Assembly (NCBI GenBank): GCA_030649135.1
Contig: JAUSGI010000005.1
Span: 5,754 to 69,753 of the forward strand
Source of the DNA: a bacterium
GTDB taxonomy: Bacteria; Patescibacteriota; Minisyncoccia; Phycocordibacterales; Zambryskibacteraceae
DNA: 64,000 nt
Direction: 5' to 3'
The notes beneath the pieces are model-generated. The model was not told the origin of the DNA and made no database searches. It saw only the letters and a program-made list of their open reading frames with translations. How positions within the stretch are numbered: position 1 is the stretch's first letter; every line of letters starts with the position of its first letter. The translations under genes were made by a program, and so were the position numbers. Of the stretch, positions 271-62,611 are shown piece by piece.

Positions 271-382
271 CCTTTCATGGCGAGTTATTCACCCGGATAC
301 CAACTGATAGCGCCTTCTCGCTAATCAGTCAGAAATCCAAGGCTACATTAACGGCTAGGTCGCCCCAATCTTAAAAGAACAG

Positions 383-453
383 CTGTTTCGCCCTTTTGGG
401 CACATCAGTCGGGATACGCATCCCGAGACAGCAGGGACTAGTTGATAGTCCCT
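383..453 (+). repeat. copy A of a repeated about 70-nt hairpin-rich motif (CTGTTTC...CATCAG-YCGGGATACRCATCCCG-GAKACAG..CAGGG)
   Basis: Aligns at roughly 75-80% identity with 1549-1620. Contains two stem-loops (GGGATACGCATCCC and AGGGACTAgttgaTAGTCCCT). Confidence 0.5.
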
Positions 454-1268: not shown

Positions 1269-1548
1269 CCAAATTTCAATTTTTAGTTCCTCGGAAGAGG
1301 GGGCTAGAGAAGTTCTCTCGCCCCGGCGTAGTCTGGAGTCCCGGTTTCCCTATGCCGGGTTATCTCCAGTTAAGGACCCACGCAAGGTCCCGCGCCACAG
1401 TCGAGGCTTCCCTCGAACGTCTGTGACGACTCGCCGCAACAACCATTGCGGCAGCAGGGGCTGAGATCATCAGCCAACCGCCTGCACGGCCGGTGGACTC
1501 TGGCGCGTTTTGGGGTACGCACCGCTCCACCATGGGAAGAACAAAACC

Positions 1549-1620
1549 CTGTTTCATCCTTTCGGAATCATCAGCCCGGATACACATCCGGATACAGGAA
1601 CCAGGGTTTAGCATTCCTGG
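1549..1620 (+). repeat. copy B of the repeated hairpin-rich motif
   Basis: CTGTTTCATCCTTTCGGAATCATCAGCCCGGATACACATCCGGATACAGGAACCAGGG aligns with copy A. Hairpins CCGGATACACATCCGG and CCAGGgtttagcattCCTGG. Confidence 0.5.
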
Positions 1621-2153: not shown

Positions 2154-2182
2154 TTGACAAATAAAATTAGGGGGTATATACT
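2154..2182 (+). promoter_or_regulatory. sigma70-like promoter TTGACA-17-TATACT
   Basis: -35 TTGACA at 2154-2159, -10 TATACT at 2177-2182. It drives a short transcript that ends at the 2378-2412 hairpin. Confidence 0.45.
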
Positions 2183-2377
2183 GGTGACAGAAACTCCTCG
2201 AAAGGAGAGTGCATGAACGACTAGGGGATGGGGAAGTCCGGGGCGTAGCGCCCCGGACATGACCCAGAAATGCGGTTAACAGAAAAGGAGATTGGGATGG
2301 CCGACTGATGTCGTACCTAGGGTAGCTTCAAAAACCAGGAGGGGGTTATGCTGTTAGCAATGACCCCACCCACAAAT

Positions 2378-2412
2378 GCCGTGGCGGCTTCACCGCCACG
2401 GCATCTTCATTT
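2378..2412. terminator. intrinsic terminator-like hairpin GCCGTGGCGG-cttca-CCGCCACGGC followed by a T-rich run
   Basis: Perfect 10-bp stem. It sits where the plus-strand leader unit converges with the 3' end of the minus-strand TrmB-like gene. Confidence 0.55.
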
Positions 2413-3147
2413 ATGATCAAAGATGTATTTGATAAGGCTTTTAAGAGTTTCTGCAAACTCCTGACTTTTTACAGATATTCCTGAAAGTCTTTTCCCGAGT
2501 ATGGCTATTTTCACACGATCGCCATAAATCGTTATGTCACTTGTAATCGGATACTTTTCATGATCTATTTTAATTCTTTCTCCAGTGCTATCAGACGGTT
2601 TATCGATAATTTTCGAGGTGTAAATTGATTTCGACCTGATTCCTCTGGAAATCCTTTCCTCTCGCATATTCGTCGTTTCTTTTTCAGTAAATAGATCTTT
2701 TACTAAATCTAGTGGATATACCATATAGACTGGTTCGTCATCGAGTTTTTTTACAAAAGTATCATCGTTGGAACTCAAGACCCCTTCCTTACCATCGAAA
2801 AACTGGACTATAGGTTTTCCTACTCGCTCTCCTTGGAGACCTCTCAATTGGGGGATGATGATATCTAAGCTTTTTTTGTTTTCCTCTAGAAGGTGAATTT
2901 GTCTCTCAACAAAGAAACCGAGTTTCTCCGGTGGTTCGGCTAGGTAATAAGTCTTTTTACCTATATTGGTCTCACTTACAAGACCCTTTTTAGCCAAAGA
3001 GTCGAGAATGACATAAGTTGTTGGTCTTTTAACTTTCGCTTTTTGTGAGATCTCTGATATTTGAGCCTTGTCGAAAGAGAGGAGGGCGACATAGACTGCC
3101 GCTTCCTTATCGCTCAATCCTATATCCCTGAGATATTTCTCGAACAT
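2407..3147 (-). CDS. TrmB-family transcriptional regulator
   Basis: N-terminal winged-HTH pattern MFEKYLRDIGLSDKEAAVYVALLSF...EISQKAKVKRPTTYVILDSLAKKGLV, as in TrmB regulators. Confidence 0.6.
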   Translation of the reverse strand: MFEKYLRDIGLSDKEAAVYVALLSFDKAQISEISQKAKVKRPTTYVILDSLAKKGLVSETNIGKKTYYLAEPPEKLGFFVERQIHLLEENKKSLDIIIPQLRGLQGERVGKPIVQFFDGKEGVLSSNDDTFVKKLDDEPVYMVYPLDLVKDLFTEKETTNMREERISRGIRSKSIYTSKIIDKPSDSTGERIKIDHEKYPITSDITIYGDRVKIAILGKRLSGISVKSQEFAETLKSLIKYIFDHK

Positions 3148-9217: not shown

Positions 9218-11203
9218 ATGTTTTGTACCAATCTTTCACTAACCATTATAACCTCATATGATATAGTGTCCAGCATGTCGAAACTCTCGGGAAATCTCAA
9301 CTCTCGACAGCAAAAAGCGGTCGCCTCTATAGCGGGACCGGTCTTAATCTTGGCGGGTGCCGGCGCCGGTAAAACCCGCACTATTGCTGAGAGAATCCGC
9401 CACCTTGTTCATGCTGGCGTGGCCCCTTCGGCCATCCTGGCCATTACCTTTACCAACAAGGCGGCCAGGGAGATGCGCGAACGGATAGAGCGGGGATTGA
9501 GAGACAGCCCCGAACAACCTTTTGTCAGCACATTCCACTCTCTGGGGGTATATATCCTGCGAGAACAGTCGGCAAAAGTGGGCATCAAGAAACACTTCAC
9601 TATTTTTGACCGAGACGATAGCAAAAAAGCGGTGAGAGAGGTACTGATAACTCTCGGACTTGACCCGAAGACACATGACCCCGGCCGCATTATGAGCATC
9701 ATTTCGAGAGAAAAGGGTAGGGGTATAGGTACGGAGGCTTATGGCGACAACGAGACACGTGGCTATTTTCAAAACGTGATAGGGCAAGTCTGGCCGGCAT
9801 ACGAGAAACTGCTCGCAAGAGACAACGCGCTTGACTTCGATGACCTGCTTGTCAAAACCATGGGCCTCCTCCGCGACGACCGTGCGGTGCGCGAGCTTTA
9901 CCAAAATATTTGGAAATATATCCATATAGACGAGTACCAGGACACCAACCGAGTCCAATACGAGATTTCAAAAATGTTGGTGGGAGAAAATAAAAATATC
10001 TGCGTGGTAGGGGACATAGACCAGAACATTTATTCTTGGCGTGGCGCGGATATCAAAAATATTCTCGACTTCGAGAAAGATTACCCGAACGCGCAAGTAA
10101 TTACACTAGAAGAAAATTATCGTTCCACCAAAACAATTCTCGAAGCAGCCAAAGTGGTGATAGAAAAAAATAAAATCAGGTTTAAAAAGAATCTTTTCAC
10201 AGATAACCCCGCGGGCGAGAAAATTGGCTTGTTCGGAGGCTTCGATGAATCAAGTGAGGCGGAGTTTATCGCTAGCAGAGCCGAAGTGCTCATCAAACAA
10301 GGGGTGTCGCCGGGAGAAATTGCGGTACTTTTCCGAGCAAACTTCCAGTCGCGAGTACTCGAGGAAGCATTCATGAATCGCGGTATTCCTTACCAACTCC
10401 TCGGCACACGATTCTTCGAACGCAAGGAAATCAAGGACGTAATTTCATATCTGCGTGCCGCCCTTAATCCGGAGAGTCTTTCGGACTTTAAGCGCATCAT
10501 CAACGTGCCGGCGCGCGGTGTCGGCAAGACTACGGTGCTGAAAATATTTGCGGGCAACGAGTCAACCCTGCCACAAACAATGAAAGTCAAACTGACAAGC
10601 TTCAGAAAACTGCTTAACGAAATCGCACAAGTTTCACAAACGAAGAAACCGAGCGAGACTATATCTTTCATTATCAAAGTATCCGGACTGGAACAAGAGT
10701 GGAAAAATAGTGGAGATGAAGGCGTGGCCCGACTCGAGAATGTCTACGAATTGGCAAACTTTGCTTCCCGATACGATAGCTTACCTCCGGAAGAGGGTAT
10801 TTTGAACTTCCTCGCGGATGCGGCGCTTCAGAGCGACCAAGACGAAATGAAGGACGGGGTACCTGCGGTACGTCTAATGACTGTGCACGCTTCCAAAGGT
10901 TTAGAGTTCGATATTGTTTTCGTCACCGGACTTGAAGATGGGCTCTTCCCACACCGGAAGGCAAATGAGGAAGCCATCGGTCAGGAAGAAAGAGAGGAGG
11001 AACGCAGGCTTTTTTATGTCGCGCTCACCCGTGCGCGCAAGAAAGTGTTTCTTTCGTATGCCGAGACACGCACCCTCTTTGGCAGAAGGCAAGTCAATAT
11101 ACCTTCTGAATTTATTTTTGATATTCCCGAAACGTTGGTTGAGGAAGAGTCTTTCGATGAGCATAGTCTACCCAGAAGGCCTCTCCTCCAAATCGATTTC
11201 TAG
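9218..11203 (+). CDS. UvrD/PcrA/Rep-family DNA helicase
   Basis: Helicase motifs AGAGKTRTIAERI, DEYQDTN, VGDIDQNIYSWRGA. The start may be the ATG at 9275. Confidence 0.9.
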   Translation: MFCTNLSLTIITSYDIVSSMSKLSGNLNSRQQKAVASIAGPVLILAGAGAGKTRTIAERIRHLVHAGVAPSAILAITFTNKAAREMRERIERGLRDSPEQPFVSTFHSLGVYILREQSAKVGIKKHFTIFDRDDSKKAVREVLITLGLDPKTHDPGRIMSIISREKGRGIGTEAYGDNETRGYFQNVIGQVWPAYEKLLARDNALDFDDLLVKTMGLLRDDRAVRELYQNIWKYIHIDEYQDTNRVQYEISKMLVGENKNICVVGDIDQNIYSWRGADIKNILDFEKDYPNAQVITLEENYRSTKTILEAAKVVIEKNKIRFKKNLFTDNPAGEKIGLFGGFDESSEAEFIASRAEVLIKQGVSPGEIAVLFRANFQSRVLEEAFMNRGIPYQLLGTRFFERKEIKDVISYLRAALNPESLSDFKRIINVPARGVGKTTVLKIFAGNESTLPQTMKVKLTSFRKLLNEIAQVSQTKKPSETISFIIKVSGLEQEWKNSGDEGVARLENVYELANFASRYDSLPPEEGILNFLADAALQSDQDEMKDGVPAVRLMTVHASKGLEFDIVFVTGLEDGLFPHRKANEEAIGQEEREEERRLFYVALTRARKKVFLSYAETRTLFGRRQVNIPSEFIFDIPETLVEEESFDEHSLPRRPLLQIDF

Positions 11204-40531: not shown

Positions 40532-40561
40532 TTGACTTTTTGATATTAAATATGGTATAAT
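40532..40561 (+). promoter_or_regulatory. sigma70-like promoter TTGACT-18-TATAAT
   Basis: Followed by the SD AAGAGGAGGA and the ATG at 40600. Confidence 0.5.
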
Positions 40562-40599
40562 TGCGGTAGGAAGATAGCGCACAAGAGGAGGACATCAAG

Positions 40600-41007
40600 A
40601 TGGCGAGAGTATTTTTACTGGCACTAGTTGTGGTGCTGATGGTTGGGTGTGTGGCCATACCCGTTGGTAGGTCTAACGGGGGAATGCAACTCTTCATCAT
40701 GTACCAAGTCGGGATGGTGGTGCGCGTGGTCAATAACTGCGCGCCCTTCCTGGATCTCGAGACCGTAAACGGGGTCTTGGTTCAAGGACTACCATACGGT
40801 AGCTCGGTCACCGTCCCCATGGTCTCGGAGCCATTTAGCGGTAGCTACCGCCAAATGTCTCTAACCGCCAAGGGCTACACGGCGAACCGAGAGTATCTCG
40901 GCTCGCTAACCGCCACGTTCCAGCTGAGCACATACGATGGATCGCGAAGCGCGGTCTGGGAGGTGGACCACCTTCGTCTCCCGAATGGTCGTGGCGGTTG
41001 CCGGTAG
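40600..41007 (+). CDS. small lipoprotein, GC-rich cassette gene
   Basis: MARVFLLALVVVLMVGC lipobox. Own promoter and terminator. Confidence 0.55.
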   Translation: MARVFLLALVVVLMVGCVAIPVGRSNGGMQLFIMYQVGMVVRVVNNCAPFLDLETVNGVLVQGLPYGSSVTVPMVSEPFSGSYRQMSLTAKGYTANREYLGSLTATFQLSTYDGSRSAVWEVDHLRLPNGRGGCR

Positions 41008-41014
41008 TTGTTGT

Positions 41015-41046
41015 GGGGCAGGACCCGAGTCCTGCCCCTTTTCGTT
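41015..41046 (+). terminator. rho-independent terminator
   Basis: GGGGCAGGACccgaGTCCTGCCCC followed by TTTTCGTT. Confidence 0.75.
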
Positions 41047-47500: not shown

Positions 47501-47508
47501 ACAAAATT

Positions 47509-48654
47509 TTAGCGCTCAGGTTGCTTAATAAGATTTTCTAAATTGTTAAACCAGAAATACAAGGAAATAAATGCCACAACCAAGAATGAGAGTTCAAACT
47601 TACCTATAGACAAAAGGAATAATGTGGTGGTAAAAACTATGACCCTTCCTAAAATGGTAGGAACTTCTCGTAGTACGAGGAATTGAGCATCGGCACTGCG
47701 GGCGCGATTTAGCATAATCGCACCGTATGCACTGGCGAAGATTCCTAGTGCAAATCCCCGAAGAATGGTCACCATATAGAGCAGAGCCGGTGTCGGTGAA
47801 TAAATAGCAACCACATAAGAAAGAGTCCACGTGACTGTTGTTGCAATTGCACCAAAGCGCACAATTGCTTTTTTATCCCATTTATCGATGAGCGTGCCGG
47901 TGATATGGGTTACGACAATTCCTACAAGTCCAGCAAGAACTCCTAGTGCCCCAATATCAAGCACCGTGAGTCCCGTTATGATTAAGAAAAGGACCCAGAT
48001 GATTTGTGCATCCTGCCCAAGGTTATCTAGGATTTCTGGCAAAATGAAATGTTTGTTTTTGCGAGTAATTGCACTAATTTCTGATAGGTCAAATTTAAAA
48101 CTCGTTTTCTCGTGTCTCATCGGTAGCACGGGAATAATAGAAATAAGAATAAATACTAATGCGGCTGCAAATAAAAGGTTGTACCCATAAAAAACAATTA
48201 ATAGGGCGGCAATTCCTGGCACAATAAGCCCAACCGCAGACCCAACGTTAGACATAAAAGCAAGTGATGAGCCTATTGTGGAATCTTCGGTCTTACGAAC
48301 AGTAAGGATGTTGTATGGAATCCAGAAAAATGCCGATTCCATTCCACTTATAATAGCCAGAATAAATAAGATAGATGGGTGGCTTGGTAACAAAAATAAC
48401 CCAGAGAAGAGAATTGTTACTAACACTATGCGTACATACCAACAACGCACAAGCCCGATGATGTTGGAAACATAAATTGCCAAAAAAGCACCCAAAAGAA
48501 GTGATAAATGGTGTGCCAGTAACCAAGTAATTACGATGGAAACAGAGTTTCCCAGCCCCAATAAATATATAGGAACAAATAATCCTACAAGGCCCGTACC
48601 AATACCAGCGATGGTATTCATGGCAACAATACGCTGAAAATCAGTTAAGCGCAT
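47509..48654 (-). CDS. MFS transporter
   Basis: About 12 predicted TM helices with MFS-type loops. Confidence 0.7.
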   Translation of the reverse strand: MRLTDFQRIVAMNTIAGIGTGLVGLFVPIYLLGLGNSVSIVITWLLAHHLSLLLGAFLAIYVSNIIGLVRCWYVRIVLVTILFSGLFLLPSHPSILFILAIISGMESAFFWIPYNILTVRKTEDSTIGSSLAFMSNVGSAVGLIVPGIAALLIVFYGYNLLFAAALVFILISIIPVLPMRHEKTSFKFDLSEISAITRKNKHFILPEILDNLGQDAQIIWVLFLIITGLTVLDIGALGVLAGLVGIVVTHITGTLIDKWDKKAIVRFGAIATTVTWTLSYVVAIYSPTPALLYMVTILRGFALGIFASAYGAIMLNRARSADAQFLVLREVPTILGRVIVFTTTLFLLSIGKFELSFLVVAFISLYFWFNNLENLIKQPER

Positions 48655-48658
48655 ACGA

Positions 48659-49234
48659 CTAACTTCTAGTAGATAGTAATTTCAATGCGGCTTTGACACG
48701 CTCGCTTGCTCCCGCTGTCTCTTTGGGAACTTTTTTGAGGGCTTCGCGAGCGTCCCGTTCGCTATAGCCGAGAGAGACGAGGGCCTCCAGGGCGTCTCCT
48801 TCGGAGCGCATATCTGTGCCCCCGTCTTCTTTCGTAGTTTTGAGTTTGTCTTTAAGTTCCAGCACGATTTTTTCCGCCTTTTTCTTGCCGATACCGGATA
48901 CTCGTGTCAGATAAGTTGTGTCTTCGCTTGCCACGGCTTGTCGAAGCATTGCGGGACTCGCGACATTCAGAATACCCAAAGCACTTTTGGGGCCAATGCC
49001 GGAGATGGTGATGAGCAGTTCAAATATATCCAAAGTTCCTTTATCCAGGAAACCAAAAAGTTCCAAAGAAGTTTCTCTGACCGCCAAATGAGTCCAGAGG
49101 AAAATGGGGGAACTCGGAGTTATTTCTAGCGCTGTTTCGGTAGTGACGAAAACTTTGTAGCCTACGCCGGAAACATCTACCACAAGAGCGTTTAGGTTTT
49201 TATGTCGGACCGTGCCGTTTAAAGTACCAATCAT
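48659..49234 (-). CDS. ruvA: Holliday junction DNA helicase RuvA
   Basis: MIGTLNGTV...GVGYKVFV..., HhH motifs, C-terminal domain III. Confidence 0.9.
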   Translation of the reverse strand: MIGTLNGTVRHKNLNALVVDVSGVGYKVFVTTETALEITPSSPIFLWTHLAVRETSLELFGFLDKGTLDIFELLITISGIGPKSALGILNVASPAMLRQAVASEDTTYLTRVSGIGKKKAEKIVLELKDKLKTTKEDGGTDMRSEGDALEALVSLGYSERDAREALKKVPKETAGASERVKAALKLLSTRS

Positions 49235-52072: not shown

Positions 52073-52318
52073 TTGTTTATGTTTGCAACCTACATTCTTA
52101 AAAGCAAAACCACCAACAGATATTACATTGGGTATACAAGTAACGTAGGAAAAAGAATCATTTATCACAATACCGGCAGGAATATTTCTACGAGAAGCGG
52201 TATACCTTGGAGCCTTGTGTATTCAGAATCATTTGAAACTCGAGCTGAAGCATGGAAAAGAGAACACCAGATAAAGTCATATAAAAGTGGAGAAGCTTTT
52301 AAAAAATTGATACAGTAA
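52073..52318 (+). CDS. GIY-YIG nuclease family protein (short)
   Basis: YILKSKTTNRYYIGYTSNVGKRIIYHN matches the GIY-YIG motif. Confidence 0.85.
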   Translation: MFMFATYILKSKTTNRYYIGYTSNVGKRIIYHNTGRNISTRSGIPWSLVYSESFETRAEAWKREHQIKSYKSGEAFKKLIQ

Positions 52319-52325
52319 GGTATCT

Positions 52326-52412
52326 GGAGGGGTGGCAGAGAGGTCTATCGCACCGCACTTGAAATGCGGCGTGGGGTAAATCCCACCGTGAGTTCGAATC
52401 TCACCCCCTCCG
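52326..52412 (+). tRNA. tRNA-Ser (anticodon TGA), type II with a long variable arm
   Basis: Acceptor GGAGGGG/CCCCTCC, anticodon stem CCGCA/TGCGG with loop CTTGAAA, variable arm GTGGG..CCCAC, T-loop TTCGAAT. Confidence 0.85.
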
Positions 52413-52549
52413 CCTTCGCCTCGCCGAAGCCCGCAAGGGCGTAGGCGGGCTTCGCTCGGCTTCGGCGTGACAAAGTCCGCCAGGTTGCATCGGAGCGACC
52501 CGAGTGCCTTAACGTGTCCTTTGGTCGAATCTGATATACTTTTTTTATT

Positions 52550-53101
52550 ATGAATATCAAATTAGGGACATTAGATTTCGCGATAGCAATGGAACGTCCA
52601 GAGTTACTTGCAAAAGCGGTGGTTGAGGTCCTTTCTGTCTTACCTAATGCTGACAAAGTCGGGGTTGCCGAAATTGACCCTAATCTCTCCGACACAGCTG
52701 GTTTTTGTGAACACTATAAGGTTGGAATGAACCATGCAGCCAACTGCGTAGTATTAGAAGCGAAGCGGGCAGATAAAAGCTGGTTTGCCGCTTGTGTAAT
52801 TTTTGGCAATACCAGAGCCGATGTAAATGGTCTGGTTCGGAGAACCTTGGATGCCCGCAAGGTGTCATTTGCGCCAATGGAGCAGGCGGTAACTCAGACC
52901 GGTATGGAATATGGAGCTATTACACCAGTTGGCTTGCCTAATGATTGGTCTATTTTGATTGATAAAGCGGTAGCTGATTCTGATTATGTAATTATTGGAA
53001 GTGGAATTAGAAAATCGAAACTCGCTGTTCCTGGAAGCTTTTTAGCATCTCTGCCTAATGTCCAAGTTTTAGAAGGACTTGGCCAAATGAAAACAATATG
53101 A
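52550..53101 (+). CDS. YbaK/ProX-type aminoacyl-tRNA deacylase domain protein
   Basis: ...GMEYGAITPVGLP...IGSGIRKSKLAVPGSFL matches the YbaK-domain core. Confidence 0.65.
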   Translation: MNIKLGTLDFAIAMERPELLAKAVVEVLSVLPNADKVGVAEIDPNLSDTAGFCEHYKVGMNHAANCVVLEAKRADKSWFAACVIFGNTRADVNGLVRRTLDARKVSFAPMEQAVTQTGMEYGAITPVGLPNDWSILIDKAVADSDYVIIGSGIRKSKLAVPGSFLASLPNVQVLEGLGQMKTI

Positions 53102-53442
53102 GCCAGATTACTTACGAAGAATTTGAAAAAGTGGATATTCGGGTTGGGAAAATTGTCGAAATTTCTGACTTTCCGGAAGCTCGGAAGCCTGCATACAAAC
53201 TCAAGATTGATTTCGGCTCCGAGATCGGGATAAAGCAATCAAGTGTTCAAGCAGTAGGAGCTCATGCAAAAGAAGAGCTTCTCAACTCGCTTGTTTGCTG
53301 TGTGGTTAATTTTCCACCAAAGCAAGTGGGGCCATTTAAGTCGGAAGTCCTAACTCTTGGCTTTAAGAATAGTGCAGGTGACGGGTGGGTTCTTATTGAA
53401 CCGAAGAGTGATCCGGTAACACTTGGAAGCAAACTAACTTAA
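53098..53442 (+). CDS. tRNA-binding protein (CsaA / EMAP-II-like OB fold)
   Basis: FEKVDIRVGKIVEI...KLKIDFGSEIGIKQSS pattern. Confidence 0.85.
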   Translation: MSQITYEEFEKVDIRVGKIVEISDFPEARKPAYKLKIDFGSEIGIKQSSVQAVGAHAKEELLNSLVCCVVNFPPKQVGPFKSEVLTLGFKNSAGDGWVLIEPKSDPVTLGSKLT

Positions 53443-53503
53443 TCTTATGGCAATCCAAATTACCTAAGCGTGCCCATGACCCCGCAAGGGAATTTGAACC
53501 ACT

Positions 53504-53530
53504 TGACATTGGATAGTTTATATGTATAAT
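53504..53530 (+). promoter_or_regulatory. near-consensus sigma70 promoter TTGACA-15-TATAAT
   Basis: Both hexamers match the consensus perfectly. The spacer is short at 15 nt. Followed by an about 75-nt leader and an AAGGAG SD. Confidence 0.5.
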
Positions 53531-53611
53531 GGTGCCCAGACGTTCGATTGCAGTTAACCGATCTACAGGCGGGGTACGCAAAGTAAGCGTATTCTAGCCA
53601 AGGAGTTTGCC

Positions 53612-54292
53612 ATGAAGCTGAAGTTTCCCGACCTGACCAACGTGCTTGCGTGTGTGAACGGGAACTGCCCCGCCTCGAAGGAGGGTATCCTCCCAGAGGA
53701 AGCTCACGCTCGCCTCCGCCAGGACGGCGAGGATGTCGTGGCCGAGCCGATCTGCCTGGCCTGCGCCGGGGATGCGGCAAAGCGCGGTATCTCCGCGCCT
53801 CTCATCTCCTCGCTCATCAAGCGCGAGGAGGAGGCTCGGGCGATCATCGTCGCCAACGCGAAGGAGGTCGAGAGCCACGATGCCCGGCAGAGGGAGCTCG
53901 ATGCTCTCTTTGCCGGTGCCGTGTTCTTCTGCCGGGTTCCCGGCTGTTCGGCGGCTCCCGAGCCGGTGAACAAGATGTTTTCGGCGGTCTACATCGAGGG
54001 CGGGAAGGAGCAGGTCGTTCCGATCTGTCCGATCTGTGTCGATGGCGCCCACCAGACGGGCGTGAAGGTCACCGACCTTCACGCCACCATCGCGCGGCTC
54101 ACGCGCGAGGGTAGGGAGCACCTGCTCTACGAGCAGGCGGAGAGAAACAAGGTCCCGGCGAATAACTTTCTCGCCGCCTGCCAGAGGGGCGACGCCCGCA
54201 ATCAGCGGGCGATGCCAGCCGTGGTCGCTCACCACGGCAATGGCAACGGTAACGGCCTTGGCAATCGACCGAGGCTGGCGACCAACAGGTAG
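53612..54292 (+). CDS. GC-rich protein with two tandem 4-Cys zinc-ribbon-like modules and a Gly/Asn-rich C-terminus
   Basis: Repeat 1 has CVNGNC...PICLAC and repeat 2 has CRVPGC...PICPIC. Strong SD. Composition very different from the flanking genes. Confidence 0.55.
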   Translation: MKLKFPDLTNVLACVNGNCPASKEGILPEEAHARLRQDGEDVVAEPICLACAGDAAKRGISAPLISSLIKREEEARAIIVANAKEVESHDARQRELDALFAGAVFFCRVPGCSAAPEPVNKMFSAVYIEGGKEQVVPICPICVDGAHQTGVKVTDLHATIARLTREGREHLLYEQAERNKVPANNFLAACQRGDARNQRAMPAVVAHHGNGNGNGLGNRPRLATNR

Positions 54293-54306
54293 TCCGAGCG
54301 CAGCAA

Positions 54307-54343
54307 GGCGTGGGGAGGAATCTCCCCACGCCTTTTAACTTTT
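54307..54343 (+). terminator. rho-independent terminator
   Basis: GGCGTGGGGAG-gaat-CTCCCCACGCC followed by TTTTAACTTTT. Confidence 0.8.
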
Positions 54344-54364
54344 CTAAAATAAATTTCTGGGAAA

Positions 54365-54598
54365 TTATTCCTCCTCCACTATTTCCACCTTATACTTCTT
54401 GGCGACAAAGAATAGGTAAATTATTTCAAGAACACCGAGCGTATTTATTAAGAGAATTACGATAAACCAGTACTTCTGTCTAAGTTCGGCTGATTTCCAA
54501 AGGGCGAACCCTTTCCATGTCAGCGTCCATATTATTGCGAGGGCGATGAGGAGAGGGTTTGTCTCTACCCATCCAGCCAGTATATTTATTGATTCCAT
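54365..54598 (-). CDS. small two-TM membrane protein
   Basis: 77 aa with two hydrophobic helices. Confidence 0.45.
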   Translation of the reverse strand: MESINILAGWVETNPLLIALAIIWTLTWKGFALWKSAELRQKYWFIVILLINTLGVLEIIYLFFVAKKYKVEIVEEE

Positions 54599-54627
54599 GA
54601 CAGGCTAATTATACTATAATTCTTCCT

Positions 54628-55017
54628 ATGAGACTGATGGCTATCGATTACGGAGAAAAGCGTGTGGGCATTGCTTCCACGGACGAGACCGGCGGTTTCG
54701 CTTTGCCGCGTGCCGTCTGGCCGAACGATAAGACTTTGTTGGACAAGATTTTTAAACTCAAGGAAGATGAGGGGATAGAGAAAATTATTGTCGGTGAATC
54801 AAGAAACTTGGATGGTAGCGCCAATCCGATTCAGAAAGAGATAGAAAAATTTAAAAGCGAACTGGAAAAACGTGGCGCCGAAGTCGTTTCCCATCCGGAA
54901 GTGTTTACTACTGTCGAGGCCAGGCGGCTTCAGGGGCAAACGGAAATGACCGACGCTTCCGCCGCCGCCCTAATTCTCAAGAGTTTTCTTGATACCGTGT
55001 ATAATAAAGGCACATGA
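54628..55017 (+). CDS. ruvX: RuvX/YqgF Holliday-junction-resolvase-like protein (putative pre-16S rRNA nuclease)
   Basis: MRLMAIDYGEKRVGIA...IIVGES matches YqgF. Confidence 0.9.
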   Translation: MRLMAIDYGEKRVGIASTDETGGFALPRAVWPNDKTLLDKIFKLKEDEGIEKIIVGESRNLDGSANPIQKEIEKFKSELEKRGAEVVSHPEVFTTVEARRLQGQTEMTDASAAALILKSFLDTVYNKGT

Positions 55018-57092: not shown

Positions 57093-57419
57093 ATGGAGAA
57101 CTCCCCAGCATCTCTAAAGAAGTCGAGTAGGAAGGCTAAAGGCGGCTTGTTTACTTTCGGTACCAGTCCGGAGGCCGATTGGAAGATTATTTTAATCTCG
57201 GCGATGATTCTTGCCGCCTCGGTTATCGCCCTTAGTGTTTTTATTTTTATAAAAGTTGGCAAGGGAGAAATCTTTGTGGCAGATATGCCTGAAGTGCAGA
57301 AAGAAAAAGCTCTAGATACCGCGCTTCTCAAAGAAACCGTTTTGTATTATCAAAATAAGGCGCTCGAGCTTGAGAAAATTAAGAGCACGAGAATCCCAAC
57401 TGCCGATCCTTCGTTATAG
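57093..57419 (+). CDS. hypothetical single-TM protein
   Basis: TM helix ILISAMILAASVIALSVFIFI. Confidence 0.4.
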   Translation: MENSPASLKKSSRKAKGGLFTFGTSPEADWKIILISAMILAASVIALSVFIFIKVGKGEIFVADMPEVQKEKALDTALLKETVLYYQNKALELEKIKSTRIPTADPSL

Positions 57420-57538
57420 GTGCGGTTTCAAGTTTTCTTCTCGACCTGAGTTTTATCGAAGGTTGGCGGCATTAAATCCAGGAATTCACGGAGTGAATAT
57501 CTAAATAATACAAGATTATGACAAAAATTTCAATTTTA

Positions 57539-57583
57539 GAAAAAAGCAGAGCCCCAAGCAGAATTGAATTCCGCAAGGGGCTC
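57539..57583 (-). terminator. rho-independent terminator (minus strand)
   Basis: On the minus strand, GAGCCCCttgcggaattcaattctgcttGGGGCTC followed by TGCTTTTTTCT. Confidence 0.6.
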
Positions 57584-57610
57584 GAGTACGAGCTGTTTTC
57601 GAAGAAGCCA

Positions 57611-57907
57611 TTACGACCTCTGCGAAGGCGCGACCTCTCTTCCACTGAACAGAATCACGACGCCGAGTACGAAACCGAAGTTGTACCAACCGCCGCTGTT
57701 ATGAACCTCATAGAAGCCCACATTGTTCGAGAAGAGCGAGATGACCAAAGTGATCGGCGCGATCATCCCATGCCATAGACCGAGCCAGAAGCCAGCGAGG
57801 CTCCCGTCCGAGGCAACGATATGCGCGGCGGTGTTGGGACCGGCGGCACAGCCCGTCAGGAACAGCGCGCTATAGAACAACATCCCGAGCAGGTGCGTTT
57901 TCTTCAT
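57611..57907 (-). CDS. small lipoprotein/membrane protein, GC-rich cassette gene
   Basis: MKKTHLLGMLFYSALFLTGC lipobox. AAGGAGG SD. Own promoter and terminator. Confidence 0.5.
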   Translation of the reverse strand: MKKTHLLGMLFYSALFLTGCAAGPNTAAHIVASDGSLAGFWLGLWHGMIAPITLVISLFSNNVGFYEVHNSGGWYNFGFVLGVVILFSGREVAPSQRS

Positions 57908-57982
57908 CGCCTTTTCCTCCTTAAGGTGCTATTCCGCGAAGCCCTCGCGGTGGGGATTTCGGATAACTCCGATTCTTAAACC

Positions 57983-58011
57983 AATATAGCATATATGGTC
58001 TTGGAAGTCAA
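57983..58011 (-). promoter_or_regulatory. sigma70-like promoter TTGACT-17-TATATT (minus strand)
   Basis: Followed by an about 70-nt leader containing the hairpin CCGCGAGGGCTTCGCGG. Confidence 0.45.
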
Positions 58012-58116
58012 GCCCAACAGAAAAAGCCTATATTTTAGGGCTTTTTCAAGGTTTCTGAATTATTTGATTTGGATTAAAAAATTTTCTTCCCCATTATAAC
58101 CCGATTTCCTACATGG

Positions 58117-60742: not shown

Positions 60743-60826
60743 GCGCGGGTGTTGAAATTGGTAGACAAGCTACCTTGAGGTGGTAGTGCTCGCAAGGGCG
60801 TGGAGGTTCAAATCCTCTCCCGCGCA
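60743..60826 (+). tRNA. tRNA-Leu (anticodon GAG), type II
   Basis: Acceptor GCGCGGG/CCCGCGC, anticodon stem CTACC/GGTAG with loop TTGAGGT, long variable arm. Confidence 0.85.
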
Positions 60827-60867
60827 CATTCGACTTAGACGCCCTTCGCGTTACAATTAACTTTGAT

Positions 60868-60940
60868 GGTGCCTATGGTGTAACGGTTAACACTCGAGCT
60901 TGTGGAGCTCGCAATCAGGGTTCGATTCCCTGTAGGCACC
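60868..60940 (+). tRNA. tRNA-His (anticodon GTG) with encoded G-1; attachment site of the downstream integrated element
   Basis: G-1 plus acceptor GTGCCTA/TAGGCAC, anticodon loop TTGTGGA, T-loop TTCGATT, discriminator C, CCA encoded. Confidence 0.85.
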
Positions 60941-62611
60941 CCAAACGGTATCTAATATAACTGCAGAAGGTTTATTGGATGCCACCTCGAAAGTCTCGAC
61001 TTTGTGTCGGGATTTTTGAGTTTTAGGGGCAACTTTCGACTTTGATTTGCCGGCCACCACCGGGCTGAATTCTACCGCCATGTCGGTCACGATCCGTGGC
61101 ATCTGGCCTTCTTTGTATTTATTGGTGAATACCAATCCTTCGGCTTGCATCAATGCTCGTATGATCGGGCTTGGTATGACCGTTACGGCTTTCTTGTCGG
61201 TAACCTCGAAGCGTTCCCAGTAGAGGCCGAGGAATAGTCGCTTCATCTCATCCGGAGCTTTCATATATGCCTCGTATGCGTTTCTCACAAAAAGCAGGAT
61301 GTCTTGGAGTTCGTCGATCCGCATGTTGAGTTTTTTGTCCTGGGTGTAGATTTCGTCCTGTATGCCCTCGACCTGTTCCTTGATCTTCACTTTGACTCGG
61401 GTGAAATCGTCATCTGAAATCAGTCCGGCAAATAGTTTTTCTTCGGCCGTGTCGCGCTTCTTTTCCAGCACCATCTTTTGAGTGTTGAGGGCTTTCTTGT
61501 CTTTATTTATGACTTCCTTTCGACCGCTATATATTTTCTCGATCTTGGCGACCATTCGATTCACGAATGTCGGAGTAAATCCGATCAGTTTGAAAAGATC
61601 GGCGATCTGCTGTTCCAAATCCCAAACCTCCACGTATTTGTCAGTGCATTTGATCTGATCGCCGGACCGGTTGCAGTGATAGTAGGATTTATTTTTCTTT
61701 GGGTGATGTTCGGCGGTGTATCGCTGGCCGCAGATCGCGCAGAATGTAAGGCCTCGCAGTATGAAATTAAACTTTTGGCGACGGCAGGCATAGCGATTGT
61801 GTTCGGCCATCACCAGCTGGGCGCGTTCCCATGTTTCTTTGGTGATGAGCGGTTTATGTTTTCCGGTGTTCACCAATCCTCGCCAGCGCATCTCGCCATA
61901 ATAGAAAGGATTTTTAAGTATCTCGATCATCTTGCTATGCGCGAGCCGCTTGCCGGCGTGAGTTCTAAATCCTTTTTTATATAAAGTGTCGCGGACTTCG
62001 TAAACGGAATAGTCACTGGTCACATACATCTTGAATGCCTCTTGAATAAGCGGTGCGCGTTCTTCGTCGGTAATAATGATCCTCTTTTTCTCATCACTCG
62101 GATCGCCGGCATTAAGATATCCGTTCGCAACACCAGTCGGCCACCAGCCATCCCAAAACTTCTGCTCGAGGCTCTTTATGGTTTTTCTTGAGGTGATCTG
62201 CGACTGGAGCTGGTTTACACCGGCGATCACCAAGTCCATGAAGTTTCCCTCCGGAGAGTCGGTTATGCCCGGCTGGGAAACTGAAAACAATTCGACGTTA
62301 TGCTTTTTGAGGATCGCTTTGATCTGCATGTGATCGAGCGCGTTTCTCGCAAGCCGGTCGGTGTCTTGGATAAACACGGCGCGAATAGCCTTGTCGTCTT
62401 GGACCCGAAGTAGCATATCCTGAAGTCCCGGACGGTTCATATTCGTGGCTGATCGTCCCGGGTCTTCAAAGACTCCTTCGTTCGCAAGCTTGAATTTATT
62501 ACTTTCCTCGATTGCTCGCTTGCAGAGTTTGAGCTGGGTAGCGAGGGAATGGTGGCCGTCCTCGGCTTGTTCTTCAGTCGAGACACGGCAGTAAATTAAT
62601 GCATGTTCCAT
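60887..62611 (-). CDS. large serine recombinase (integrase)
   Basis: N-terminal resolvase catalytic domain (IYCRVSTEEQ), recombinase domain, Cys-rich zinc ribbon, coiled-coil. The last about 18 codons are the reverse complement of the tRNA-His 3' half. Confidence 0.85.
   Translation of the reverse strand: MEHALIYCRVSTEEQAEDGHHSLATQLKLCKRAIEESNKFKLANEGVFEDPGRSATNMNRPGLQDMLLRVQDDKAIRAVFIQDTDRLARNALDHMQIKAILKKHNVELFSVSQPGITDSPEGNFMDLVIAGVNQLQSQITSRKTIKSLEQKFWDGWWPTGVANGYLNAGDPSDEKKRIIITDEERAPLIQEAFKMYVTSDYSVYEVRDTLYKKGFRTHAGKRLAHSKMIEILKNPFYYGEMRWRGLVNTGKHKPLITKETWERAQLVMAEHNRYACRRQKFNFILRGLTFCAICGQRYTAEHHPKKNKSYYHCNRSGDQIKCTDKYVEVWDLEQQIADLFKLIGFTPTFVNRMVAKIEKIYSGRKEVINKDKKALNTQKMVLEKKRDTAEEKLFAGLISDDDFTRVKVKIKEQVEGIQDEIYTQDKKLNMRIDELQDILLFVRNAYEAYMKAPDEMKRLFLGLYWERFEVTDKKAVTVIPSPIIRALMQAEGLVFTNKYKEGQMPRIVTDMAVEFSPVVAGKSKSKVAPKTQKSRHKVETFEVASNKPSAVILDTVWGAYRESNPDCELHKLEC

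Follow-up and report, generated by a model that had tools for sequence, protein, structure and literature searches.

A self-contained, GC-rich gene cassette encoding a predicted tandem zinc-finger protein in a variable slot of a Parcubacteria genome

Introduction

Genomes of the candidate phyla radiation (CPR) are tiny, and most of their accessory genes are unannotated. Here we analyse one gene cassette from such a genome, located at positions 53503-54345 of a window of 64,000 nucleotides (nt), by which we mean the whole stretch of DNA studied (contig JAUSGI010000005.1 of assembly GCA_030649135.1, positions 5,754 to 69,753 of the forward strand; Patescibacteriota, Zambryskibacteraceae). A first-pass annotation, made by eye from the letters, had described it as an acquired autonomous unit for a novel metal-binding protein.

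The closest described systems are the phage morons, which are defined by an own promoter and terminator, a GC content unlike that of the neighbours and their status as extra DNA relative to related genomes, as in the HK97 gene 15 unit (PMC3594210). Like a moron, the cassette is an independent transcription unit with promoter and terminator of its own, its GC content differs from that of the surrounding genes, and it is a single accessory gene that forms extra DNA in comparison with syntenic relatives. Unlike a moron, it lies outside any recognisable prophage and no phage homologues were found, and its GC offset recurs in every host rather than marking one donor. Horizontal gene transfer is documented for Patescibacteria in the available part of PMC12455944, where it takes place mostly among Patescibacteria; the cassette resembles the transferred genes and islands treated in that part in being accessory DNA of a streamlined genome, and differs from them in that it consists of one gene, measures ~0.85 kb, brings its own signals and shows an offset in composition across its whole family. 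We propose, as the probable though by no means certain reading, that a Zambryskibacteria/Minisyncoccia-like Parcubacterium carries the cassette in its chromosome as a moron-like accessory unit expressed monocistronically, and that the cassette belongs to a very small Parcubacteria family that travels with its own control signals.

Results and Discussion

The cassette is a self-contained gene

Every element of the cassette that had been described could be located (Table 1), and the cassette is confirmed as a real gene, complete in itself with promoter, leader and terminator. The promoter is a perfect match to both sigma-70-type boxes, the only one in 64 kb against ~0.04 expected from base composition, and its -10 box lies 81 nt before the start codon. 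The strong Shine-Dalgarno sequence (SD) and the open reading frame (ORF) of 226 amino acids (aa) are present as claimed, and the leader announced as 75 nt comes to ~74 nt from an inferred start. The terminator is likewise real, its stem being longer than the 11 base pairs (bp) first given, and it faces a convergent DUF5652 gene. The neighbours are ybaK-like, csaA-like, DUF5652, RuvX and PilM genes; ruvX, which had been named as a flanking gene, is separated from the cassette by the DUF5652 gene.

The ORF has a GC content of 0.651, with 0.67, 0.46 and 0.82 at the first, second and third codon positions (GC1, GC2 and GC3), compared with a mean GC of 0.46 (standard deviation (sd) 0.045) and a mean GC3 of 0.49 (sd 0.083) in the other 63 ORFs of the window, which bears out the contrast in composition first noticed by eye. 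The maximum-likelihood GC-rich segment, 53627-54332, has 66.0% GC inside and 42.5% outside, which indicates that the anomaly spans the coding sequence (CDS) and the terminator and not the promoter or the leader; the GC steps are sharp at both borders and coincide with the start codon and the terminator. The codon-position order GC3>GC1>GC2 is the pattern of a coding high-GC gene and, together with seven full-length homologues, indicates that the ORF is coding. An antisense ORF (53594-54235, 213 aa, GC1/2/3 of 0.83/0.44/0.68) was rejected as a shadow of the GC3-rich codons.

Table 1. Features of the cassette and its right-hand neighbour, in window coordinates
Feature	Position	Strand	Basis or remark
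Sigma-70-type promoter: -35 TTGACA (53503-53508), 16-nt spacer, -10 TATAAT (53525-53530)	53503..53530	+	12/12 match
5' leader, ~74 nt	53538..53611	+	Transcription start inferred, not mapped
Leader hairpin: 12 pairs and one bulge, 7-nt loop, ending directly 5' of the SD	53568..53599	+	Minimum free energy and centroid fold
Shine-Dalgarno AAGGAG, 6 nt before the ATG at 53612	53600..53605	+	Sequence
CDS, 226 aa and stop codon	53612..54292	+	ORF list, codon-position GC, full-length homologues
Module 1, residues 1-101: C14-x4-C19 knuckle, beta-hairpin 32-47, C48-x2-C51 starting helix 49-57, long helix 65-100	53612..53914	+	AlphaFold2 model, alignment A1
Strong hairpin within the CDS, 13 bp, -26.4 kcal/mol	53884..53916	+	Adds to the excess mRNA structure
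Module 2, residues 102-196: C107-x4-C112, beta-hairpin 123-138, C139-x2-C142 at helix 140-148, long helix 156-189 ending in invariant F186 and C190	53915..54199	+	AlphaFold2 model, alignment A1, hhalign
Perfect 12-bp inverted repeat within the CDS, 3-nt gap between arms, -21.3 kcal/mol	54059..54085	+	No conservation at this site among homologues
Disordered basic tail, residues 197-226: GNGNGNG and conserved G-[FLY]-x-[NSG]-x-x-R-[LVIT]	54200..54289	+	Predicted local distance difference test (pLDDT) <50, alignment A1
Intrinsic terminator: perfect 13-bp stem (54305-54317 / 54322-54334), 4-nt loop, T-rich tail	54305..54345	+	-26.8 kcal/mol
DUF5652 gene, between cassette and ruvX	54365-54598	-	Annotation of the window

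A very small family keeps the same promoter-to-terminator design

An exhaustive HMMER scan of 1.84 billion cluster representatives yielded a family of 8 clusters. The window protein (P0001) is a singleton with no relative above 44% identity, and its seven full-length homologues (P0002-P0007 and P0009) have 194-226 aa and 27-44% identity at E values of 3e-42 to 6e-06. The 2131-aa protein P0008, with Agenet/Tudor repeats, matched the region of helix B and the tail and was treated as a compositional artefact, probably spurious. A word-indexed protein search returned the query itself only, and a profile search there three members only. Alignment A1 was too divergent for locus scans; with alignment A2 a genome scan recovered the known Kaiserbacteria locus only, and scans of metagenomes and viral sequences gave no match.

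The DNA of seven distinct loci, that of the window among them, was compared for the design of the cassette. The promoters score 12, 11, 12, 9, 11, 11 and 12 of 12, each in an AT-rich patch at the same relative position, and the distance from the -10 box to the ATG is 63-100 nt. A leader hairpin ends 0-5 nt 5' of the SD in all seven loci with stem sequences that differ, the 3' arm AAGCGTATTCTAGCC being common to the window, L002 and L004, and a hairpin of -23 to -32 kcal/mol follows the stop codon in every case. The family gene is also richer in GC than its flanks throughout (0.60-0.71 vs 0.41-0.59, with GC3 of 0.80-0.96), and in each of the three longer contigs it is the top outlier for both GC and GC3. 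The search for homologous cassettes that the first-pass annotation had proposed thus uncovered the same design in 7/7 loci, and its description of an autonomous unit holds, both because the promoter, leader, SD and terminator are real and because this architecture is kept. Neighbouring genes differ in every homologous locus; there is therefore no conserved partner. The hosts that could be named are all Parcubacteria, namely Candidatus Kaiserbacteria for L005/L010 and Candidatus Parcubacteria for L009.

The leader itself has no Rfam match at E<=10. A conserved-leader 15-mer, TAAGCGTATTCTRGC, gave at least 120 metagenome matches, none of them with a family gene, and these were dismissed as chance matches. 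In the Kaiserbacteria locus L005, a 63-aa gene with a weak DUF397 match and a GC3 of 0.80 (9626-9870) lies directly upstream of the family homologue; the terminator hairpins of this gene and of the family gene, CGCGCAACCTTCGGGTCGGGCGCC and GGCGCCGACCTACGGGTCGGCGCC respectively, are alike.

The product is a predicted tandem zinc-finger protein

The cysteines of the protein are spaced C14-x4-C19-x28-C48-x2-C51 in module 1 and C107-x4-C112-x26-C139-x2-C142 in module 2. A pairwise BLASTP of one half of the 226-aa protein against the other was not significant. Profile-profile comparison of the halves with hhalign, using the eight family members, aligned them in register (C14/C107, C19/C112, C48/C139 and C51/C142) with a probability of 96.9% and an E value of 1.5e-10, and the tandem duplication of a ~95-aa Cys4 module that had been noticed by eye is therefore real, as is the GNGNGNG tail. 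This tail has an isoelectric point of 9-12 in all family members. Invariant in alignment A1 are A33, G59, C107, P110, C112, P116, M122, C139, A146, F186 and C190. The fourth ligand of site 2 (position 142) varies between C, H and D across the family; all three residues are zinc ligands. P0009 lacks the cysteines of site 1, and in P0006 and P0007 other residues have taken the place of some of them. The conserved Cys ligands and the C/H/D choice at position 142 suggest metal binding, presumably of zinc, at two predicted sites.

AlphaFold2 gave an unusable model from the single sequence (pLDDT 37); with the 8-sequence alignment the pLDDT rose to 82.6, at a predicted template-modelling score (pTM) of 0.59. 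In the latter model both halves consist of a knuckle, a beta-hairpin, a short helix starting at the CxxC motif and a helix of ~35 residues, and the predicted ligand layout in both modules is that of a Cys4 treble-clef-like finger, with a knuckle pair and, after the beta-hairpin, a second pair in the first turn of the helix. Judged by this order of secondary structure, the modules are probably treble-clef-like rather than classical zinc ribbons, contrary to the earlier assignment.

Searches of the 226-aa protein against Pfam, NCBIfam, PHROG, PADLOC and PDB gave no significant match, with no PADLOC anti-phage defence family at E<=1; sequence searches of the PDB hit nothing beyond de novo helical repeat proteins and, weakly, YfgJ (E 0.23), and these were set aside. 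The claim of a novel protein stands, with neither a curated family nor a solved structure matched, and we regard the protein as the founding member of a new, uncharacterised family and as a candidate for a new zinc-finger architecture without solved relative. The nearest described domain is the PyrI_C zinc domain of aspartate carbamoyltransferase (ATCase; PF02748), which, together with other treble-clef C4 fingers, shares the C-x4-C ... C-x2-C spacing and the position of the second Cys pair at the helix N-terminus after a beta-hairpin in the predicted model. The PyrI_C score of 12.4 bits is below the Pfam gathering threshold of 23.4, such sub-threshold matches (E 4.6e-4 to 0.15) occur in one or two of the eight members, and PDB profile searches returned no ATCase regulatory chain; we therefore take them as a lead and not as membership. 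The cassette protein further differs from PyrI_C in its tandem duplication, its two ~35-residue helices, its basic tail and its lack of an ATCase context, and no solved structure aligns over its whole length. A second lead, and no more than a lead, is a resemblance to the small zinc-finger and coiled-coil regulators of the DksA/TraR type and others like them, which are often carried on mobile elements: these, too, combine a Cys4 site with long helices in a small cytoplasmic protein encoded by a stand-alone accessory gene. They differ in that no sequence or fold match to them appeared in the searches made, and in that the two long helices of the cassette protein are split by a whole zinc module, giving a different topology.

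The cassette occupies a variable slot between conserved blocks

The PilM protein of the window is closest to proteins of Parcubacteria, Zambryskibacteria and Minisyncoccia; three relatives of its PilM-PilN fusion share 85%, 78% and 72% aa identity with it, and many PilM relatives lie at 60-85%. The backbone around the cassette is conserved and runs DoxX ... RuvA ... Zip, the slot, DUF5652-RuvX-PilM ... malic enzyme ... L19. Nucleotide homology to the relatives L131/L132, L133 and L134/L135 begins at 54366-54383, at the stop codon of the DUF5652 gene, with 87% nt identity to L131/L132 at the slot junction. To the left of this point the slot holds a small membrane protein gene in L131/L132, the C-terminus of a serine recombinase in L133, and DUF2975 with an inverted tRNA-Ser in L134/L135, whereas in the window it holds GIY-YIG, tRNA-Ser (52326-52414; inverted in L134), ybaK-like and csaA-like genes and the cassette. 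The comparison supports the view that this Parcubacteria (CPR) genome carries the cassette as an accessory addition within a variable slot. The claim that it was acquired is thereby sustained as far as its accessory status goes, the closest sampled relatives losing homology exactly at its right edge and carrying other genes in the slot, and the window protein having no relative above 44% identity although the organism's relatives are well sampled; the GC excess does not by itself point to a donor of high GC. A stand-alone 81-aa GIY-YIG protein, encoded directly upstream of the tRNA-Ser(TGA) at 52073-52414, marks the left end of the slot.

The family gene exceeds its host in GC by a mean of +0.15, and by +7 to +20 points in the homologues from Parcubacteria of 41-59% GC. 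The GC of the gene follows that of the host, and the excess is therefore a family trait rather than the fingerprint of one recent donor.

Weighing the origin of the cassette

A number of observations count against a travelling, moron-like unit as proposed above. The GC of the family gene is correlated with that of the host (r 0.74), and this correlation, with the gene being the top GC3 outlier in every longer contig, argues for long residence and a gene-intrinsic constraint and not for recent import. The ribosomal protein L19 gene has a GC3 of only 0.565, so that expression-linked codon bias was rejected as the full explanation of the 0.82 of the cassette. No phage, integrase or transposase gene flanks the cassette, nor was a convincing target-site duplication or terminal (inverted) repeat found, matches between the flanks being only ~10-11 nt; in the absence of mobility genes and repeats, 'moron' is used here as an analogy, and loss would explain just as well why the relatives lack the cassette. 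Taken singly, the leader folds do not differ significantly from those of shuffled sequences (z -0.1 to -2.8, one at +1.0), the strong excess of mRNA structure described below is confined to the window copy, the z of the homologous CDSs being only -0.8 to -2.2, and conserved RNA hairpins within the CDS were rejected, as their protein positions differ between homologues. The structural model of the protein was built on eight sequences only, at the pTM given above.

Much of this would also be expected of a native, vertically inherited and very highly expressed Parcubacteria gene that has repeatedly been lost, with a GC content and consensus signals resulting from selection for expression and mRNA stability. 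Such a gene would account for nameable hosts that are all Parcubacteria, for a constant positive offset on a gene GC that follows host GC, for the retention of the promoter, leader and terminator design at 27-44% protein identity, and for the lack of attached mobility genes. It fits poorly with a family of so few clusters, in which P0001 is a singleton while its neighbours have dozens of close relatives, with a genomic context that differs in every locus, with a slot that is variable and holds a serine recombinase in L133, and with the low GC3 of L19, and we consider it rather unlikely.

The cassette might instead be a true phage moron, or the remnant of an integrated element, which a CPR phage or integrative element would have left as cargo in an integration hot spot next to tRNA-Ser. 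All traits of the moron definition that concern the sequence (PMC3594210) are present, the slot of the cassette lies downstream of the tRNA-Ser and the GIY-YIG gene, the equivalent slot of L133 has the serine-recombinase C-terminus, and the window encodes a serine recombinase at 60887-62611. We nevertheless find this origin quite improbable, with no adjacent phage structural or replication genes, with native-GC ybaK-like and csaA-like genes between the tRNA and the cassette, and with no family member in IMG/VR, INPHARED, PLSDB, PHROGs or BFVD; tblastn against phage and plasmid collections was not significant either.

The extreme predicted structure of the message raises a third alternative, in which the GC-rich island would serve in the first place to produce a structured RNA, or an RNA of dual function, the ORF being secondary or fortuitous. 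The CDS folds at -365.6 kcal/mol, compared with -315 (sd 6) kcal/mol for synonymous-codon shuffles (z -8.6 and -8.9), while 27 control genes have a mean z of -0.79 (sd 1.18) and the next most extreme CDS, at z -4.0, is that of the GC-rich unit at 40600. The whole transcript reaches z -9.1 against dinucleotide shuffles, in a branched fold that joins its 5' end by base pairing to the 3' end of the CDS; excess structure is missing from the first ~120 coding nt. These values, and the occurrence of a GC-rich island with a strong promoter and terminator in an AT-richer genome, which is the usual signature of an RNA gene, speak for an RNA product. The clear codon periodicity (GC3 0.82 vs GC2 0.46), the strong SD, and protein conservation over the full length with in-frame indels down to 27% identity speak for a protein. 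Covariance models of Rfam give no match at the gathering score in the cassette body or the leader, the sole match being Atu_C9 (25.8 bits vs a gathering score of 40) on the minus strand and overlapping the terminator. The homologues, moreover, lack excess structure and do not share the hairpin positions, so this is not a conserved RNA element, and we give a primary RNA gene very little credence. A viroid-like or Obelisk-like reading was considered in view of the high structure and of hammerhead motifs elsewhere in the window, and was rejected on account of the absence of a ribozyme motif from the cassette, a fold that is branched and not rod-like, and a promoter and terminator at the DNA level. 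We tentatively attribute the excess structure to selection for a stable message.

The sharp GC steps at both borders could suggest a chimeric assembly or contamination by a high-GC fragment. This is extremely improbable, because an independently assembled 1968-nt Logan contig from SRR13727527 is identical to the window over 52978-54945 and crosses both junctions, although it may derive from the same reads as the metagenome-assembled genome, because the steps fall at the start codon and the terminator and not at arbitrary points, and because the same design recurs in other Parcubacteria contigs of 15-57 kb.

Proposed expression and function

For an accessory, moron-like unit, which remains our preferred reading, we propose the following mode of action. 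The cassette would be transcribed strongly and constitutively from ~53537/8 into a GC-rich, heavily paired and presumably long-lived message that is open only over its first ~120 coding nt. The product, whose N-terminus is not hydrophobic, would be cytoplasmic and would consist of two duplicated treble-clef-like Cys4 zinc modules, each followed by a helix of ~35 residues, and a basic disordered tail with a short motif. Module 2 (CxVPxC...PEP..KM...C-x2-[CHD]), with F186 and C190, would form the conserved functional core, while module 1 appears to be degenerating and is probably structural. Only Cys, Pro, Gly, Ala, Met and Phe occur among the invariant residues, and no catalytic acid or base is conserved, which suggests a zinc-stabilised binding or regulatory protein rather than an enzyme. 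Such a protein could use module 2 and the tail to contact a partner, be it a protein or a nucleic acid, and may feed back on its own leader hairpin.

Similar units and other features of the window

The 64 kb contain six promoters of at least 11/12, of which three precede GC-rich ORFs without Pfam match (35984-36688, 40600-41007 and the cassette). At 35938-36688 (+), TTGACA-17-CATAAT (11/12) is followed by a 234-aa ORF with a GC of 0.577, a GC3 of 0.69 and no Pfam match, which may be the same class of accessory unit. A self-contained GC-rich unit at 40532-41038 (+) has the promoter TTGACT-18-TATAAT preceded by TG, a 10-bp terminator and a 135-aa lipoprotein-like ORF (GC3 0.68, no Pfam match) whose CDS ranks second in the window for excess structure (z -4.0 against synonymous shuffles). 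Another, at 57385-58115 (-), encodes a 98-aa lipoprotein-like ORF (57611-57907, GC3 0.76) and has its own TTGACT-17-TATATT promoter, a ~65-nt leader and a terminator; it is a 730-nt insertion beside tRNA-Arg relative to L134, which has 40 nt there, and L133 carries other genes at this site. In contrast to these GC-rich units, a 381-aa minus-strand gene at 47501-48671 is a low-GC insertion (GC 0.41) that the syntenic L134 lacks, with 6 nt between the flanking blocks there. The large serine recombinase at 60887-62611 (-), with Resolvase, Recombinase and Zn_ribbon_recom domains, abuts tRNA-Leu and tRNA-His (60743-60943) and may mark the edge of an integrated element.

Two further regions carry RNA-like features. 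At 2154-2420 (+), TTGACA-17-TATACT (11/12) is followed by the GC-rich hairpin GTCCGGGGCGTAGCGCCCCGGAC with no ORF before the next minus-strand gene; this may be a small RNA, and it has no Rfam match. Two type III hammerhead motifs of the same polarity, at 380-434 (-) and 1546-1600 (-), lie 1166 nt apart in a GC-rich (~57%) island at 1-2000. Both match the full-length model, with 42.7 bits (E 1.4e-7) and 30.7 bits (E 3e-4), and so fall short of the gathering score of 48.5; copy A reads U for the final A of CUGAUGA, the cleavage triplet of copy B is GUA, and the ~180 nt flanking the copies show a mean column identity of 72%. The pair could bound a DNA-encoded RNA of ~1.17 kb. Between them lie two minus-strand ORFs, 510-821 (103 aa, lipoprotein-like, LFAGC) and 1043-1210 (55 aa, CPEC...CKRC, zinc-ribbon-like), both preceded by a repeated hairpin-containing leader (861-892 and 1232-1266): AGAACTTGAGCGAA..ATTTCGCTCTTCTGAA.

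Significance

The overall reading of the first-pass annotation is essentially supported, with caveats concerning the GC donor and the zinc ribbon. What is unusual about the cassette is the conservation of its signals, the family-wide GC offset and the extreme predicted structure of its mRNA. A bolder extension, which we hold to be unlikely as a whole, would be that Parcubacteria (CPR) exchange phage-independent, promoter-to-terminator single-gene units whose coding regions are GC-rich and, in some lineages, hyper-structured for very stable, highly translated mRNAs, with the cassette founding a family of tandem zinc-finger regulators that may bind their own leader hairpin.

The locus shows that a compositionally odd ORF without close relatives can be a real gene of a conserved family, that its expression signals are conserved more stringently than its protein sequence, and that it occupies a variable slot between conserved blocks. 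If this pattern is general, it would provide a simple sequence rule by which mobile, highly expressed accessory genes could be found in CPR genomes, as well as a test case for genes that stay GC-rich against the mutational bias of their host.

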